A DNA stretch of 12,902 nt from a virus (taxonomy: Duplodnaviria; Heunggongvirae; Uroviricota; Caudoviricetes). Below the pieces are notes generated by a model that worked only from the letters and a program-made list of their open reading frames with translations, made no database searches and was not told the origin of the DNA. The translations under genes and the position numbers were made by a program. Positions within the stretch are counted from its first letter, which is position 1. Each line of letters starts with the position of its first letter. The stretch lies in the IMG/VR virus record IMGVR_UViG_2541047884_000004. One strand, written 5' to 3'. Below, one piece after another: positions 2,738-12,775 of this stretch.

Positions 2738-3121
2738 TCAATTAGAATTATTAGCAACGATATCCATATCTAACCGGATATCTAATGCCATTAACATCCC
2801 TTCAATTATGCCCTCAGCCTTCTGTAACCTTTTCCCGATATAACCATCCGAGCAGCAATGCTTACTTGCCAGTGACATGAATGTCATACCACATACATAA
2901 TAATCTACTAATAAATCGTGTAAATCGCTGTTGTTCTTTTTCAGACGGGCCATGCACCCGCAAATGATCATCGCGTCATCGTCACAACATTGCGGGCGAG
3001 ATTTTACTTTTGAAGGAATTAATCCCTTAAAACCGGCGGCAATGGACGACCAGGTCACATCTTCATGATTATTAGCCGCCCACGCACCCCAACGCTCAAG
3101 AACCATCTGAATATCACGCAT
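2738..3121 (-). CDS. Q: Late-gene antiterminator Q (DLP12 QuuD-like)
   Basis: 127 aa from ATG 3121 ([18 protein letters not shown]...), preceded by GGAG; the ORF-track start at 3136 is a TTG. Cys-rich ([12 protein letters not shown] ... HCCSDG). Position between rusA/ylcG and the lysis cassette. Confidence 0.7.
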
Positions 3122-6801: not shown

Positions 6802-6855
6802 TGAACCGCCCCGGGAATCCTGGAGACTAAACTTCCTGAGAAAGAGGTAAACAGG

Positions 6856-7182
6856 ATGACTAAAAATACTCGTTTTTCCCCCGAAGTCCGTCAACGGGCA
6901 GTCCGTATGGTTCTGGAAAGTCAGAGCGAATATGACTCACAATGGGCGACAATTTGTTCCATTGCTCCAAAGATTGGCTGTACGCCGGAGACTCTGCGTG
7001 TCTGGGTTCGCCAGCATGAGCGGGATACCGGGGGCGGTGATGGAGGGCTCACCACCGCTGAACGTCAGCGTCTGAAAGAGCTGGAACGTGAAAATCGTGA
7101 ACTGCGCCGCAGTAACGATATCCTTCGCCAGGCTTCCGCTTATTTTGCGAAGGCGGAGTTCGACCGCCTCTGGAAAAAATGA
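6856..7182 (+). CDS. IS3-family transposase OrfA (HTH/leucine-zipper part)
   Basis: 108 aa [55 protein letters not shown]...; ends in an A6 run (7174..7179) where the -1 frame OrfB begins. Confidence 0.9.
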
Positions 7183-8069
7183 TGCCACTGCTGGATAAGC
7201 TGCGTGAGCAGTACGGGGTCGGACCGCTATGCAGCGAACTGCATATTGCCCCGTCAACGTATTACCACTGTCAGCAACAGCGACATCATCCGGATAAACG
7301 CAGTGCCCGTGCGCAGCGCGATGACTGGCTGAAGAAAGAGATACAGCGCGTATACGATGAAAATCACAAGGTATACGGTGTGCGTAAAGTCTGGCGTCAG
7401 TTGTTACGGGAAGGTATCAGAGTGGCCAGATGCACTGTGGCACGTCTCATGGCGGTTATGGGACTTGCCGGTGTTCTCCGGGGTAAAAAGGTCCGTACGA
7501 CCATCAGCCGGAAAGCCGTTGCCGCAGGCGACCGCGTAAACCGTCAGTTCGTGGCAGAACGACCTGACCAGCTGTGGGTGGCTGATTTTACTTACGTCAG
7601 CACATGGCGGGGCTTCGTCTATGTGGCGTTCATCATTGATGTGTTTGCCGGATACATCGTGGGGTGGCGGGTCTCATCGTCCATGGAAACGACATTCGTG
7701 CTGGATGCACTGGAGCAGGCGTTATGGGCCCGTCGACCGTCCGGCACGGTCCATCACAGTGATAAAGGTTCTCAGTATGTATCGCTGGCCTACACACAGC
7801 GGCTTAAGGAAGCCGGATTACTGGCATCAACAGGAAGTACAGGCGACTCGTATGACAACGCGATGGCGGAGAGCATCAATGGTCTTTACAAAGCGGAGGT
7901 AATACACCGTAAGAGCTGGAAAAACCGTGCAGAAGTGGAACTGGCCACACTCACGTGGGTGGACTGGTATAACAATCGACGATTGCTGGAAAGGCTGGGC
8001 CATACTCCTCCGGCAGAAGCAGAAAAAGCTTATTATGCTTCCATCGGAAACGATGATCTGGCAGCCTGA
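7179..8069 (+). CDS. IS3-family transposase OrfB (DDE catalytic domain); OrfAB fusion expected by programmed -1 frameshift
   Basis: 296 aa with an rve-type integrase core (…[31 protein letters not shown]… [11 protein letters not shown] … [17 protein letters not shown]…). Overlaps OrfA in the -1 frame at the A-run. Confidence 0.9.
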
Positions 8070-8111
8070 GTTCACAGATAAAACACTCTCCAGGAAACCC
8101 GGGGCGGTTCA

Positions 8112-8665
8112 CTCTGAATTGCAGCATCCGGTTTCACCACAGAAAGGTCGTTTTCTGGCTGGTCAGAGGATTCGCCAGAATTCTCTGACGAATAATCTTT
8201 TCTTTTTTCTTTTGTAATAGTGTCTTTTGTGTCCCCCTGTTTTGAGGGATAGCAATCCCCCAATTTGAGGGATGTTTTATCCCTCGTTTTAGGGGATTTT
8301 CCCTCGTTTTGAGGGATACACCATTCTGAGATGTTTTTATTTGGTCCAAACATGCCGCCTTGCTGCTTGATAATATTCATTCTGACGAGTTCTAACTTGG
8401 CTTCATTGCACCGTTTGACGGGTAACTTTGTAATCTCGCTAAGTTGAGAATCGGTGATTCTGTCCATTGGTTTATTCCATCCATAGGTTTTACGCAGAAT
8501 GGCAAGCAGCACTTTAAACTGTCGCTTGGTCAGATCTGCGCCTGAATAAGCCTCAAGCAGCATATTTGATAGTCTGGCGTAACCATCATCGAGATCTGCC
8601 ACATTACGCTCCTGTTTGGCAAAGTTACCTCTGCAGAAGTTGAGTATTTTTGCTGTATTTGTCAT
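8112..8665 (-). pseudogene. O: Replication initiator O, N-terminal (ori-binding) fragment, truncated by the IS insertion
   Basis: ATG 8665 with AGGAG RBS; MTNTAKILNFCRGNFAKQERNVADLDDGYARLSNMLLEAYSGADLTKRQFKVLLAILRKTYGWNKPMDRITDSQL... matches lambda O. The reading frame runs into the IS end and stops at 8072 after 15 IS-encoded residues. Confidence 0.9.
8185..8317. repeat. ori-lambda-type replication origin inside O: four iterons plus adjacent AT-rich region
   Basis: Four ~18-19 bp near-palindromic repeats of the TCCCTC-N-GAGGGA type (about 8232..8250, 8255..8273, 8279..8297, 8300..8317), flanked by the AT-rich stretch 8185..8231 (tgacgaataatcttttcttttttcttttgtaatagtg). Confidence 0.75.
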
Positions 8666-8697
8666 AATGACTCCTGTGGATTGATCCAGTAATGACC

Positions 8698-8994
8698 TCA
8701 GAATTCCATCTGGATTTGTTCAGAACGCTCGGTTGCCGCCGGGCGTTTTTTATTGGTGAGTCCATCAAGCGCATACTTAAAAGCCCTGCTAATCGGACTG
8801 ATGTCTGATGCCATTCCGAAAGCACACAAGACCGAAGCAATAAATCTCCAGTCCGTTCTGCTTATCTTCGATTCATGACAGCCAATCATCTTTGCCAGAC
8901 CGCGCTGGGTAATAGCTGACAGATTGATAAGTAAATCTGTTTCTGCGCGATCAACGTCACGCTGTGATAGTTTGCTGTAACTTGTTCTTTCCAT
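8698..8994 (-). CDS. cII: CII-like transcriptional activator
   Basis: 98 aa; C-terminal LTNKKRPAATERSEQIQMEF matches lambda CII as recalled, the N-terminal two thirds are divergent. Position between cro and O. Confidence 0.8.
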   Translation of the reverse strand: MERTSYSKLSQRDVDRAETDLLINLSAITQRGLAKMIGCHESKISRTDWRFIASVLCAFGMASDISPISRAFKYALDGLTNKKRPAATERSEQIQMEF

Positions 8995-9079
8995 TTCTTA
9001 AGATTTCCAATAGTGAATAGTTAGTTGAAAGGTATGCGTGGAAACGCATATGGCCTTAGTTGGTCAGATATCTTGGAAC

Positions 9080-9124
9080 TCGCTTTTCAGCGACGTAGGA
9101 CGAATGTCCGTTGTTACAAAGAGC
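9080..9124 (-). promoter_or_regulatory. nutR-like site: boxA, spacer hairpin, boxB hairpin with GAAA loop
   Basis: Minus-strand reading GCTCTTTGTAACAA (boxA-like, 9124..9111), hairpin GGAC-attc-GTCC (9109..9098), hairpin TCGCT-GAAA-AGCGA (9093..9080). It lies just after the cro stop and has the same architecture as the site upstream of N. Confidence 0.5.
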
Positions 9125-9135
9125 GGATCCGCTTA

Positions 9136-9351
9136 TTAAGCGGCTTTGTGTTCCGGCGGGAACACGTCATCAAGACTGACTTTTGCGCCTAACTTGTTTA
9201 GGCACGCAACAAGAGCACGGCATGTTTTAAGGTCTGGGAAGCGACGACCAGATTCCCAATGTCCGATAGCTCCCTGTGTGCATCCAACTGCCTTAGCAAG
9301 TGTTGTTTGAGAGATATTCAGTGACTCTCGATATTTTCGTAGGTTGCTCAT
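9136..9351 (-). CDS. cro: Cro-like repressor (HTH, XRE family)
   Basis: 71 aa from ATG 9351 (MSNLRKYRESLNISQTTLAKAVGCTQGAIGHWESGRRFPDLKTCRALVACLNKLGAKVSLDDVFPPEHKAA), preceded by GGAGGG; divergent from cI. The longer ORF-track form would overlap the operator region and is rejected. Confidence 0.75.
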   Translation of the reverse strand: MSNLRKYRESLNISQTTLAKAVGCTQGAIGHWESGRRFPDLKTCRALVACLNKLGAKVSLDDVFPPEHKAA

Positions 9352-9462
9352 ATGCCCTCCATAGTAAACACGAATAAAAAAATACAATATGTACTTTGCG
9401 AATACAAGTAAAAATACACATTGTGCATGGATGGTTCCAGTACAGAGCGTAATAATAAGGAC
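9352..9462. promoter_or_regulatory. OR region: divergent pR (for cro) and pRM (for cI) with TACA/TGTA-type operator repeats
   Basis: Candidate pR on the minus strand: TTGTAT (9407..9402), 17-bp spacer, TATTTT (9384..9379). Operator-like near-palindromes include TACAATATGTA (9383..9393) and TACAAGTA (9403..9410). The motif at 9382..9397 is shared with the pL region. Candidate pRM -10 TAATAA (9450..9455) lies 7 bp before the cI ATG. Confidence 0.55.
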
Positions 9463-10122
9463 ATGAAAATGAAATGGTATGAACTGGCTAGATCCAGAAT
9501 GAAAGAGCTCGGCATAACTCAAGAGAAGTTAGCCGAAGAGCTAGGTATGACGCAGGGTGGGATTGGACACTGGTTGCGCGGATCTCGTCATCCATCTCTT
9601 AGTGATATTGGTGTGGTGTTTAAATACCTTGGTATTGATAACATATCATTCAACCACGACGGGACATTTTCACCTGTTGGCGAATACTCATCGGCCCCAG
9701 TTAAAAAACAATATGAGTACCCTGTTTTTTCTCATGTTCAGGCTGGGATGTTCTCTCCAGAACTCAGAACCTTTACCAAAGGCGATGCGGAGAGATTGGT
9801 AAGCACAACCAAAAAAGCCAGTGACTCTGCATTCTGGCTTGAGGTTGAAGGTAACTCAATGACCGCACCAACAGGTTCCAAACCCAGCTTTCCTGACGGG
9901 ATGTTAATTCTGGTTGACCCTGAGCAAGCTGTTGAGCCCGGCGATTTCTGCATAGCCAGACTTGGTGGTGATGAATTTACCTTCAAGAAACTGATCAGGG
10001 ATAGCGGTCAGGTGTTTCTACAGCCACTAAACCCACAATACCCAATGATCCCATGCAATGAGAGTTGTTCCGTTGTGGGGAAAGTTATCGCCAGCCAATG
10101 GCCTGAAGAGACGTTTGGGTGA
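9463..10122 (+). CDS. cI: CI prophage repressor: HTH N-terminal domain plus S24 (LexA-like) autocleavage C-terminal domain
   Basis: C-terminal ~150 aa ([71 protein letters not shown]...[10 protein letters not shown]) match lambda CI as recalled, including the GNSM serine and catalytic Lys regions. N-terminal DNA-binding domain differs from lambda. Start taken at ATG 9463 (ATG 9469 also possible). Confidence 0.9.
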
Positions 10123-10161
10123 TGAAACCACTTTTATCTACAATTTACAGGGCGGTAAACA

Positions 10162-10719
10162 TTGGCAAAAATAGATGATTATCAGCCAAGCCAAGTAGAA
10201 GTTGATAAAGTACTTTATTGTAAAAAAATAGTTAACTTTTCTGGCGTTAAATGGAAACAGAAACCAAGTCGCTCTGATATGTGGCTACAAGCCCATATCA
10301 TCCCCTTGGATGAGGATTGTATACCTATACAAGGGCTAAAGTTTGAACTGAAATGGAAACCAGATCAGGATTCAGAACCTGATGACCCGATTTCTTACCC
10401 TAAAATAAATATTATTGCTTTCTATCATAACAAGAGGGTTTTCGCGGTAGATACCTATCACTTTGACAAACACACGAATAGTTACAAGGTCGATCATCCG
10501 AAGTACCAAGATATCATTTACGGTGCTCACTACCATGTATACTATGAAGAAGCTGGATACTATAGTGATAGAATAGCGTTTCCAATCGAAGATGACATAA
10601 ACCCAGATGGCCTGGTAGGGTATTGGAATTACTTCTGTAAACATCTGAACATAACTTACTCTGGGAGAATACCTTTACCGCTTGAAGATGAGTCGGGGCA
10701 AATGGGGTTTGGAATATGA
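10162..10719 (+). CDS. Hypothetical protein, 185 aa, no recognised family; first gene of a two-gene cassette at the rexAB-equivalent locus
   Basis: Long ORF in AT-rich DNA immediately downstream of cI. First in-frame start is TTG at 10162 (preceded by AGGGCGG); no in-frame ATG until codon 40. Hydrophilic, rich in aromatic and acidic residues, no obvious TM segment. Confidence 0.6.
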   Translation: MAKIDDYQPSQVEVDKVLYCKKIVNFSGVKWKQKPSRSDMWLQAHIIPLDEDCIPIQGLKFELKWKPDQDSEPDDPISYPKINIIAFYHNKRVFAVDTYHFDKHTNSYKVDHPKYQDIIYGAHYHVYYEEAGYYSDRIAFPIEDDINPDGLVGYWNYFCKHLNITYSGRIPLPLEDESGQMGFGI

Positions 10720-11468
10720 TGTGCGCAACAGTGATCTCACAACTAGGTTTCGAATGCCATCCAATAGGCAAGACCTTGAGAATTATCAGTCCATTCACTT
10801 ACTGTGATGATGGAGAGCATGTCGGTGCCTTTATCCGTGAAGTCAATGGTAGGTATTTAGTTAGTGACAGATGCGATGCCTTAATGAATATGGAGGCAAG
10901 AGGGATCTCGCTTACCAAAAAACGACTTGATGAGATACGACAATTACTGCTTAAAGAAGGCGCAGAACTCAATGCTCGAGGAGAAATCATTGCTTGGGCA
11001 ACAGAAAAGGATGTCGGTGCGATTACATCGAACATAATTAGAGCTGGTATACTCGCATCAACTTTGTCGTTAGACTGGTATCAGCCAGTTCAAGCTGAAA
11101 AGTTTGAAAGTATGGTTATTGATTATCTATATCACACAGAGCTTAGAGACGCACTTTCTCTTCGTGAAAACGTATATGGCTTGAGTGGACATCAAATTAC
11201 CGTCCCTGTAACAATAAAAACCGACATACCTAAATACGTTTTTACATCAAGCGTGAAACACGGAGGAAGCTGGAATAGTGCTTACTCATTGCTTGGGAAA
11301 CTAATTGATCTTAAAGCTTCAAGTGAGGAGTATAACAACAGATTTGTTGTTATAGACAGCGAAGCAATTGGTGATCAAATGCAACAACTCTCCTTACTCT
11401 TCCATGAATCAAGCCAAGTTCTACCATTCTCCAAAAGAGAGACTTGGGTTAAGAGACTTGCAGCATAA
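10716..11468 (+). CDS. Hypothetical protein, 250 aa, no recognised family; second gene of the cassette
   Basis: ATG 10716 overlaps the stop of the upstream gene (ATGATG...TGA, typical translational coupling). Same strand as cI, followed within 6 nt by an intrinsic terminator. No TM segments apparent. Confidence 0.65.
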   Translation: MMCATVISQLGFECHPIGKTLRIISPFTYCDDGEHVGAFIREVNGRYLVSDRCDALMNMEARGISLTKKRLDEIRQLLLKEGAELNARGEIIAWATEKDVGAITSNIIRAGILASTLSLDWYQPVQAEKFESMVIDYLYHTELRDALSLRENVYGLSGHQITVPVTIKTDIPKYVFTSSVKHGGSWNSAYSLLGKLIDLKASSEEYNNRFVVIDSEAIGDQMQQLSLLFHESSQVLPFSKRETWVKRLAA

Positions 11469-11473
11469 TACAA

Positions 11474-11499
11474 CCCGGCCTCAGCGCCGGGTTTTCTTT
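11474..11499 (+). terminator. Intrinsic terminator ending the cI-cassette transcript (tIMM-equivalent)
   Basis: cccggc / ctcag / gccggg stem-loop followed by GTTTTCTTTG. Confidence 0.6.
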
Positions 11500-11682
11500 G
11501 CCTCACGTTCGCCCACCTAAAAACACATAACCAATTATATTTATTGAAAAATAAATAGATGCAACCCACTAAACCACGCAATTCTGATCTCTCCTTACAT
11601 CGCCGAGGCAATACATCCACGCTAAAAAACAACACTATTAAATACAAAGCGTTATAAAAAACCACGCCAACTTACAACAAAT

Positions 11683-11725
11683 TGTATTGATCTTGTAAAG
11701 TACATATCGTACTATTTAACCGTCA
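11683..11725 (+). promoter_or_regulatory. pL promoter with overlapping OL operator repeats
   Basis: TTGATC (11697..11702), 17-bp spacer, TACTAT (11720..11725). Operator-like inverted repeats TACAACAAATTGTA (11683..11696), TGTAAAGTACA (11704..11714) and AGTACATATCGTACT (11709..11723). The 16-mer AAAGTACATATCGTAC (11707..11722) recurs at OR with two mismatches. Confidence 0.5.
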
Positions 11726-11761
11726 GCAGGACGCTGGAAGCCAAATGGAACAGACTGGCAG

Positions 11762-11806
11762 GCTCTTTAAACAACGTCGACTCTCGACTACGTGGCTGAA
11801 AAGCCA
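11762..11806 (+). promoter_or_regulatory. nutL-like site: boxA, spacer hairpin, boxB hairpin with GAAA loop
   Basis: GCTCTTTAAACAA (11762..11774), hairpin GTCGA-ctc-TCGAC (11776..11788), hairpin TGGCT-GAAA-AGCCA (11793..11806), about 100 nt upstream of N. Confidence 0.5.
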
Positions 11807-11904
11807 GATCACCCAACCACATAAGCTGTGGGATGCAATGCCGAAGCAACCGTCTCAGGAGGAGCTTCGAGATTGCATCGCCAAAGTTTATTCGGGAGGA
11901 ATCC

Positions 11905-12177
11905 ATGTCCAGAAAAACAGAATTTAAAGGCACCGCAGCTTCTCGCCGTAGAGCTCGTCGCGCAAATCTGCAAAGTCAGGAGGCGATCAGCTCCGACAAG
12001 CTACACAGGCCAACCCCTTCACGAGTGGTCTTGCAATGCAAGCTCAAACCAGCAATGAGAGCAGAAGTGATAACTCTGACAACGTTGACCAGAAAATATG
12101 AAGGTTCAACTTGTCTTCCGAACGTAGCTCTTTACGCGGCAGGCTACCGGAAATCAAAACAACTGACGGCGAGATGA
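11905..12177 (+). CDS. N: N-family transcription antiterminator (P22 gp24-like)
   Basis: 90 aa from ATG 11905 with GGGAGGA RBS. N-terminal arginine-rich motif (GTAASRRRARRANLQ); C-terminal LPNVALYAAGYRKSKQLTAR closely resembles the P22 gene 24 protein C-terminus as recalled. First gene after pL/nutL. Confidence 0.75.
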   Translation: MSRKTEFKGTAASRRRARRANLQSQEAISSDKLHRPTPSRVVLQCKLKPAMRAEVITLTTLTRKYEGSTCLPNVALYAAGYRKSKQLTAR

Positions 12178-12193
12178 TAAATTCATTTGCTAA

Positions 12194-12775
12194 TTACTTG
12201 TTTTTGCCATGCTTATCCTGAGCGATAAGTTCATCCATAAGGCTGTCTGCCTTCCCGGCAAACCTAATGTAGCACTCATGTCTATAGCTTTCAGGGATAA
12301 CGAAACGGTCGGTATCAGGATATCCAACAGCAGGAGGCCTTCGAACGAGGAGTCCTTTTTTGAGCAATGAAATTGATTCATGAGCGCCCTTTTCCGTTTG
12401 TAGCTGGTTATTAGCGGCTACAGCGAATGCCAAATACGCTCTTTCTCCAAGAGTTAACGAATCAAACAAATCTTGCACATATTTTTCTTCTTTAGATTTG
12501 CGCTTCTGAGCAGCGAATACCTCAATTCTTTCAGTCACAGCGTGATAAGCGGAATTAACAACGCCGTTAAGCACATAGCTAACGCAAAACAACAGGATGT
12601 AATACATCCAGTAATGAGGAAGGATTTCTGGATTATGCAGGTTTATCCATTCTTTTACGCTTACCGGCATAACAATAATCAATATGATCAGGATGATTAG
12701 CATATGAATCAACTGTTTAAGTGTCATTCCTTGCAGGAAAAAATGCATTAGTTCCTGCCACCATGAGTTGTTCAT
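12194..12775 (-). CDS. sieB: Superinfection exclusion protein B
   Basis: 193 aa from ATG 12775 (MNNSWWQELMHFFLQGMTLKQLIHMLIILIILIIVMPVSVKEW...), hydrophobic N-terminal TM region; near-identical to lambda SieB as recalled. Convergent with N. Confidence 0.85.
   Translation of the reverse strand: MNNSWWQELMHFFLQGMTLKQLIHMLIILIILIIVMPVSVKEWINLHNPEILPHYWMYYILLFCVSYVLNGVVNSAYHAVTERIEVFAAQKRKSKEEKYVQDLFDSLTLGERAYLAFAVAANNQLQTEKGAHESISLLKKGLLVRRPPAVGYPDTDRFVIPESYRHECYIRFAGKADSLMDELIAQDKHGKNK

Follow-up and report, generated by a model that had tools for sequence, protein, structure and literature searches.

In a 12,902-nucleotide stretch of viral DNA (IMG/VR record IMGVR_UViG_2541047884_000004, referred to below as the window), a repressor gene of the lambda cI kind encodes a protein that joins a lambda-type C-terminal domain (CTD) to an N-terminal DNA-binding domain (NTD) of another kind. 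The initial annotation regarded this protein as a hybrid of a distinct immunity specificity, which raises the questions of whether the combination is new, how it arose and what it does in its host. We consider it very probable that the gene is the cI of a defective lambdoid prophage of the VT2-Sa (Stx-phage) immunity group, of the type represented by prophage 3 of Nissle 1917. The coordinates of the main features are collected in Table 1.

Table 1. Features of the immunity region in the window, with the evidence used to place them
Feature	Coordinates	Strand	Basis
cII, 98 aa	8698..8994	-	Pfam Phage_CII, E=7e-34
cro, 71 aa, HTH_3, divergent from cI	9136..9351	-	Pfam; annotated as cro in Nil2, VT2-Sakai and AP005153
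OR1, putative (AAGTACATATTGTATTT on the minus strand)	9380..9396	-	Exact match to VT2-Sa OR1; putative operator in AP005153
OR2, putative	9412..9428	-	Exact match to VT2-Sa OR2
OR3, putative	9438..9454	-	Exact match to VT2-Sa OR3; overlaps the proposed PRM -10
cI repressor gene, 219 aa plus stop	9463..10122	+	ORF, translation, Pfam HTH_3 and Peptidase_S24
CI N-terminal DNA-binding domain and start of the linker (residues 1-83)	9463..9711	+	Pfam HTH_3
Lambda-type module of cI (residues 84-219)	9712..10122	+	Distal linker, cleavage-site region, S24 oligomerisation/self-cleavage domain
Ala94-Gly95, counterpart of the lambda Ala111-Gly112 self-cleavage bond	9742..9747	+	Alignment to lambda CI
Ser132, counterpart of the lambda Ser149 nucleophile	9856..9858	+	Alignment to lambda CI
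Lys175, counterpart of the lambda Lys192 general base	9985..9987	+	Alignment with 8gmu
Two-gene cassette, 185 aa and 250 aa, overlapping, in the rexA-rexB slot	10162..11468	+	Lambda homology stops at the cI stop and resumes at 11472
Terminator-like hairpin closing the cI operon	11472..11493	+	Terminator scan, inverted repeat
OL3, putative	11640..11656	-	1 mismatch to VT2-Sa OL3
OL2, putative	11673..11689	-	1 mismatch to VT2-Sa OL2
OL1, putative	11698..11714	-	Exact match to VT2-Sa OL1
N antiterminator gene, downstream of OL/PL	11905..12177	+	Pfam N_peptide, E=1.5e-32

The two parts of the CI protein

The cI frame runs intact from the ATG at 9463 to a TGA at 10120-10122, as seen in the list of open reading frames and in the translation. 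Pfam placed HTH_3 (PF01381) in the N-terminal domain at residues 11-58 (E=1.9e-10) and Peptidase_S24 (PF00717) in the C-terminal domain at residues 87-209 (E=1.1e-28). With its S24 domain, Ala-Gly bond and Ser/Lys dyad all present, the protein fits the LexA/lambda-CI family of self-cleaving (S24) proteins. Its C-terminal domain is 99% identical to the CTD in the lambda CI structures (PDB 3bdn, 8gmu, 2ho0 and 1f39); the 8gmu chain has an Ala at the position of Lys175, which is the site mutated in cI K192A constructs. The Ala-Gly site, the Ser/Lys dyad and the entire cooperativity surface are the same as in lambda CI (PDB 3bdn, 1f39, 2ho0, 1lmb).

For the comparison with lambda, the CI reference was taken from NC_001416. 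Over the full length, BLASTP gave 151/212 identities (E=8e-112). When the two genes were compared codon by codon, anchored at their stop codons, residues 84-219 were identical to lambda CI at 135 of 136 positions, the exception being L112 (W in lambda), and nearly all codons upstream of 84 differed. The lambda-type domain had been expected to begin at about residue 85, and this is where it was found, with a similarity that chance could not have produced. In the nucleotide comparison, the lambda-homologous segment extends from nt 9712 (codon 84) to the cI stop (93.4% identity, 27 mismatches in 412 nt), and no lambda-like DNA was detected on either side of it. Residue 84 corresponds to lambda Tyr101 (alignment offset 18, less the initiator Met). 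It falls inside the interdomain linker of lambda CI, which we take to be residues 93-131, in agreement with the junction near the linker put forward earlier. Because the junction precedes the Ala94-Gly95 self-cleavage site by 10 residues, the exchanged unit is the cleavage-site region together with the C-terminal domain. CI is a natural mosaic of an HTH part (residues 1-83) and a lambda-type part (residues 84-219).

The N-terminal part gave 15/50 identities to the lambda N-terminal domain (E=8e-08), and at 30% over 50 residues it lies outside the lambda-type NTD of the imm lambda group. The initial annotation was right in calling the HTH domain different from that of lambda; to call it unrelated was too strong, as both belong to the same Pfam family, HTH_3. 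Because this family is shared and the lambda NTD is among the best PDB matches, together with those of the 434 and P22 repressors, the CI NTD is a distant homologue with the same fold. We propose TQGGIGHW as its recognition helix. In the alignment, the counterparts of lambda Gln33 and Gln44 are retained, Glu34 and Asp38, which we take to be the positive-control residues, correspond to Glu21 and Glu25, and Gly, His and Arg stand where lambda CI has Ser45, Ala49 and Asn52. Since CI is 14 residues shorter than lambda CI ahead of the HTH, it would have no lambda-like N-terminal arm, unless an upstream start is used.

Such an upstream start, an ATG at 9427, is given for cI in RefSeq (WP_001302016.1) and in AP005153. 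It overlaps OR2, and the 12 extra codons cross OR3 and the proposed PRM. The M-x-M motif is also found at the start of the CI homologues of Salmonella phage SPN9CC and of an Erwinia phage, and in SPN9CC a stop codon lies 8 codons upstream of the M-x-M start in the same frame; both observations support a start at 9463, or at the second ATG at 9469, as preferable to the one at 9427. The position of an AAGGA at 9456-9460 would suit a ribosome-binding site of ATG 9469, so that it is conceivable that cI has two starts, a leaderless one at 9463 and a Shine-Dalgarno-driven one at 9469.

Operators, promoters and neighbouring genes

The operators were mapped by placing on the window the six VT2-Sa sites given in Table S1 of a 2023 paper (PMC10742460). 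Four of the six are identical here and two differ by one base, and the record of the Stx1-converting phage (AP005153) has cI flanked on both sides by three sites annotated as putative operators. The half-site is approximately A-A-R-T-A-C-A, as against TATCACCGC in lambda, and the lambda operators (TATCACCGC-type 17-mers) had no match at up to 3 mismatches in 9352-9462 or 11594-11830. Operators differing from those of lambda had been foreseen, and three 17-bp sites of another type do lie on each side of cI. The operator core ACRNNNTGT is not enriched across the window (18 matches, 13.7 expected); the evidence for the operators lies only in their clustering in two sets of three and in their identity to published sites. 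Of the core positions, 6 of the 13 ACRNNNTGT positions sit in two 67-bp clusters, one in the cro-cI gap and the other upstream of N. The inverted-repeat finder reported no repeat in OR because the operators are imperfect palindromes. The CI NTD, the adjacent cro and the six 17-bp operators make up the immunity-specific module.

The layout is that of a lambda-type switch, with a tripartite OR (9380-9454) between the divergent cI and cro and a tripartite OL (11640-11714) upstream of N. [quoted passage not shown] The centre-to-centre spacing is 32 bp for OR1-OR2 and 26 bp for OR2-OR3, compared with 24 and 23 bp in lambda, and because of this spacing the details of cooperativity may differ from those in lambda. 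The centres of OR3 and OR2 (the latter at 9420) are 17 and 43 nt from the cI ATG at 9463; in lambda, where the PRM start coincides with the first base of cI, the corresponding distances are 19 and 42 nt. Read by hand, a -10-like AATAAT at 9451-9456 would set the PRM start at about 9463, and TTGTAT-17-TATTTT on the minus strand is proposed as PR, with OR1 covering the spacer and the -10. PR, PRM and PL were not called by a generic promoter scan of the window, so their placement relies on manual reading and on the lambda-like geometry.

Cro is 35% identical to the CI NTD, and its recognition helix, TQGAIGHW, shares 7 of 8 residues with that of CI. The near identity of the two helices fits the reading of one operator set by both proteins. 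In lambda, Cro is of the lambda type, whereas here it is an HTH_3 paralogue of the CI NTD. The structure of a homologue of this Cro has been solved (PDB 28tn, "lambda repressor-like protein", E=4.5e-17).

Two hairpins were seen on the plus strand on the N side of the region. The one between PL and N is boxB-like (UGGCU-GAAA-AGCCA, 11793-11806, z=-2.9) and is likely to be nutL. The other, a strong hairpin of the N leader (11829-11883, -27 kcal/mol, z=-4.3), immediately precedes the N start; it contains a 16-nt inverted repeat at 11832-11879 and may resemble the RNase III site of the corresponding leader in lambda. Rfam returned no known RNA family over 8600-12300.

Beyond the rexA-rexB slot, the segment in which lambda homology resumes (11472-11593) has 90% nucleotide identity to the lambda region just past rexB. 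The two genes that occupy the slot match DUF6978 (weakly) and DUF1828 in Pfam, and phrog_2017 and phrog_1960, all of unknown function. Compared with the PADLOC system PDC-M24, the pair matched M24B over the full length (E=5e-10) and M24A weakly, over about 50 residues (E=1.2e-3). The cassette is presumably co-transcribed with cI and may possibly be a prophage-encoded defence pair. A search of the literature found nothing on PDC-M24, and for DUF1828 only unrelated material.

The same repressor in Shiga toxin phages and E. coli genomes

The CI protein is identical at 219 of 219 residues to the annotated cI product of Nil2, the Stx1-converting phage, Stx2 II, 2851, 1717, YYZ-2008 and PA phages, of which the Stx1-converting phage and Stx2 II are from strain Morioka V526, and at 218 of 219 to the CI of VT2-Sa (AP000422). 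In a tblastn search, 58 of 50,697 phage records carried CI at an identity of at least 99%, including PA-series Stx2a phages and several non-Stx lambdoid phages, in which the gene is likewise annotated as cI. The NTD alone retrieved the same set of phages, and its next best matches, in Salmonella P22-like and Erwinia phages, reached only 52-57%, so the domain lies outside the classical laboratory immunity types and is of the VT2-Sa type. In the group of VT2-Sa, VT2-Sakai (Sp5), Nil2, the Stx1-converting phage, Stx2 II, 2851, 1717 and YYZ-2008, the cII-cro-OR-cI DNA is 96.4-96.8% identical to the window. The VT2-Sa/Nil2-type Stx phages have orf22 and other genes downstream of cI where this prophage has the DUF6978/DUF1828 pair; unlike them, the prophage is defective and the window contains no stx.

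The initial annotation held that identity of the NTD to a well-characterised immunity type would make this a known hybrid, and such identity is what the comparisons gave: the protein and the operators are those of the described VT2-Sa/Nil2/Stx1-phage type. The hybrid is already known and is common in E. coli, the mosaic having been described about 25 years ago in Shiga-toxin phages. In the part of Fattah et al. 2000 that is related in PMC10742460, the homology between the VT2-Sa and lambda CI proteins is given as high C-terminally and low N-terminally.

One copy of the gene departs from the rest. In AP000363, one of two GenBank records of VT2-Sakai, an in-frame TAG at about 3091-3093 occupies codon 31 of cI, where all other copies, including AP000422, have Gln. 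Because of this codon, cI is annotated there as a truncated 169-aa protein; the TAG reflects either a mistake in sequencing or a genuine amber mutation.

In 236 complete E. coli genomes, the 3.6-kb immunity region is found at 99.9-100% identity. Among the matches listed are mostly ExPEC, avian and canine isolates together with Nissle 1917, and also ATCC 25922, S88, UM146 and ABU 83972. The immunity-specific 360 bp (OR and NTD) are present in 776 of 5426 complete E. coli genomes (14%), including many O157:H7. Nissle 1917 carries the region in prophage 3, next to icd; this prophage has an integrase truncated by an IS and is reported to be non-inducible (PMC5987069). The window corresponds to this prophage, with identical cI, OR and OL, the exception being a 1.3-kb IS that splits the replication gene O, and the prophage is further degraded here than in Nissle 1917. 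The element (6806-8111, IS3 family, with ORFs at 6856-7182 and 7179-8069) was judged against the otherwise 99.9% identical Nissle 1917 prophage 3, and a second IS end lies beyond 12799 in the window. An OmpC/NmpC-like porin gene, annotated ompC in Nissle 1917, is found at 1407-2549 on the plus strand, with the Q antiterminator on one side and the lysis genes on the other, an arrangement shared with DLP12-type prophages.

The "phage repressor pr" of Nissle 1917 was considered as a candidate for the same cI and rejected, its cloning and qPCR primers bracketing cII (window 8672-9040). For this gene, EcN_1294, a more than 200-fold drop in plating has been reported with stx and lambda phages (Bury et al. 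2018, PMC5987069). Because the primers map to a CII-family gene, the protection would stem from a cII homologue expressed off pUC19 and not from the immunity repressor.

Origin of the mosaic and proposed role of CI

In imm434 and imm21 phages and in hybrid repressors, the NTD-cro-operator module determines specificity, the CTD provides dimerisation, cooperativity and RecA sensitivity, and the linker is the point at which the two can be exchanged. The CI described here follows the same principle; the laboratory hybrids were engineered or selected, whereas this one is a natural and widespread allele. In the shared CTD module, 26 synonymous changes and 1 non-synonymous change separate the window from lambda (dS 0.37, dN 0.003, dN/dS 0.008), which marks the module as old, with a nearly frozen protein, and not as a recent import from lambda. 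In a comparison of CTD distances that left out the Stx1-converting phage, Nil2 and 683R2, the CTD of phi458, which has a VT2-Sa-type NTD, was 18 nt from that of HK544, which has a lambda NTD, and 33 nt from that of the window. Since the CTD alleles fail to group by NTD type, this indicates repeated exchange, and the mosaic very probably formed through exchanges at the linker that drew on a common pool of CTD alleles. All phages sampled whose CTD reached 97% identity had a lambda or VT2-Sa-type NTD, and no third NTD class was found on a lambda-type CTD.

Homology also breaks at the cI stop, which is followed by rexAB in lambda, orf22 in Stx phages, other genes in HK544 and mEp234 and the DUF6978/DUF1828 pair here. 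Because of the breaks at both the NTD junction and the stop codon, the conserved CTD works as a recombination joint between the immunity-specificity module and the accessory-gene slot. In the Salmonella P22-like phages SPN9CC, epsilon34 and vB_SosS_Oslo the CI homologues are full-length, combine an NTD of this class with a lambda-type CTD and begin with M-x-M, but the SPN9CC-type CI differs in sequence (NTD 52%, CTD about 80% identical) and presumably in immunity specificity. As the SPN9CC-type CI shares both domains with the protein of the window, either lambda CI or the CI of the window could with equal right be counted as the hybrid.

The same pattern might have come about by vertical descent, the NTD diverging fast for a new specificity and the CTD being frozen by purifying selection without any recombination. 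The distant homology between the NTDs would agree with such a history, as would the dN/dS of the CTD and the greater divergence of the NTD than of the CTD in SPN9CC, which suggests that NTDs evolve faster. However, about 10 nt at codon 84 are enough for nucleotide identity to rise from nothing detectable to 93%, and it vanishes right after the stop, the synonymous divergence of the CTD is only 0.37 against no detectable DNA similarity upstream, and the CTD alleles are not clustered by NTD type. Descent without exchange is very improbable in view of these discontinuities, and we keep to a mosaic formed at the linker.

Two further alternatives concern the activity of the protein. CI could belong functionally to the lambda immunity group, with mutual operator recognition giving true cross-immunity. 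[quoted passage not shown] 2000 in the summary of that work given in PMC10742460, where lambda CI also shifted all VT2-Sa operator oligonucleotides in EMSA, and the residues at lambda Gln33 and Gln44 are conserved. On the other hand, the affinities of lambda CI for the VT2-Sa sites, the only binding data located, are only micromolar and near-uniform (3.7-6.4 uM, compared with 0.2-3 uM on its own sites; PMC10742460), resembling low-specificity binding; no lambda-type operator lies near cI, the operator consensus AARTACA differs from TATCACCGC, and the positions of Ser45, Ala49 and Asn52 carry other residues. We find it highly unlikely that CI falls in the lambda group; its immunity is very likely distinct from that of lambda, a view qualified in print by the cross-immunity just cited (Fattah et al. 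2000 via PMC10742460). The gene could also be an inert remnant of a dead prophage that no longer acts as a repressor in this host, in keeping with the split O gene of the window and with the truncated integrase and the lack of induction in Nissle 1917. Yet the ORF, the catalytic residues, the six operators and the terminator show no damage and agree exactly with their Nissle 1917 counterparts, the protein is identical in Stx phages that were deposited as isolated, complete phage genomes, and the immunity-specific segment is conserved in 776 genomes, all of which makes an inert cI hard to credit.

As a repressor of the VT2-Sa group, CI would work in the manner of lambda CI, a proposal based on the near identity of the two proteins and on the operator layout. 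CI dimers would bind OR1/OR2 and OL1/OL2 cooperatively through the CTD, thereby repressing PR and PL. From OR2, centred at -43, a dimer would activate a weak PRM, whose start at or next to ATG 9463 would give a leaderless cI mRNA as in lambda, and OR3 and OL3, about 2.3 kb apart, would permit looping and autorepression. Upon stimulation by RecA*, CI would cleave itself at Ala94-Gly95. We infer this RecA*-stimulated self-cleavage, and with it induction, from the identity to lambda CI residues 101-236, while cooperative binding, PRM activation from OR2 and OL-OR looping are predicted from the identity of the CTD and from the position of OR2 43 nt upstream of the ATG. Because cI sits in a defective prophage, its present role is likely to be superinfection immunity against homoimmune phages, including many Stx phages, on the assumption that the gene is expressed.

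The CTDs are 99% identical and belong to a shared pool of recombining alleles, so that lambda-type and VT2-Sa-type CI might form mixed dimers, tetramers or octamers in cells that carry both prophages, an idea that we put forward as speculative and rather doubtful. If true, it would allow cross-talk such as mutual destabilisation, coupled induction or partial cross-immunity. It might then underlie the lambda/VT2-Sa cross-immunity of Fattah et al. 2000, and possibly account for some of the protection that Nissle 1917-type strains have from lambdoid phages.

For repressor biology the significance of this cI is modest, and it opens no new question there: it is a textbook case of modular phage evolution, in which the specificity module and the signalling and cooperativity module are swapped at the linker. 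The gene is a marker of one of the most frequent lambdoid immunity groups in E. coli. Commensal, probiotic (Nissle 1917) and ExPEC carriers encode the exact repressor of many Stx2a and Stx1 phages, so that immunity to lysogenic conversion or lysis by phages of the VT2-Sa group is predicted for carriers of such a cryptic prophage.
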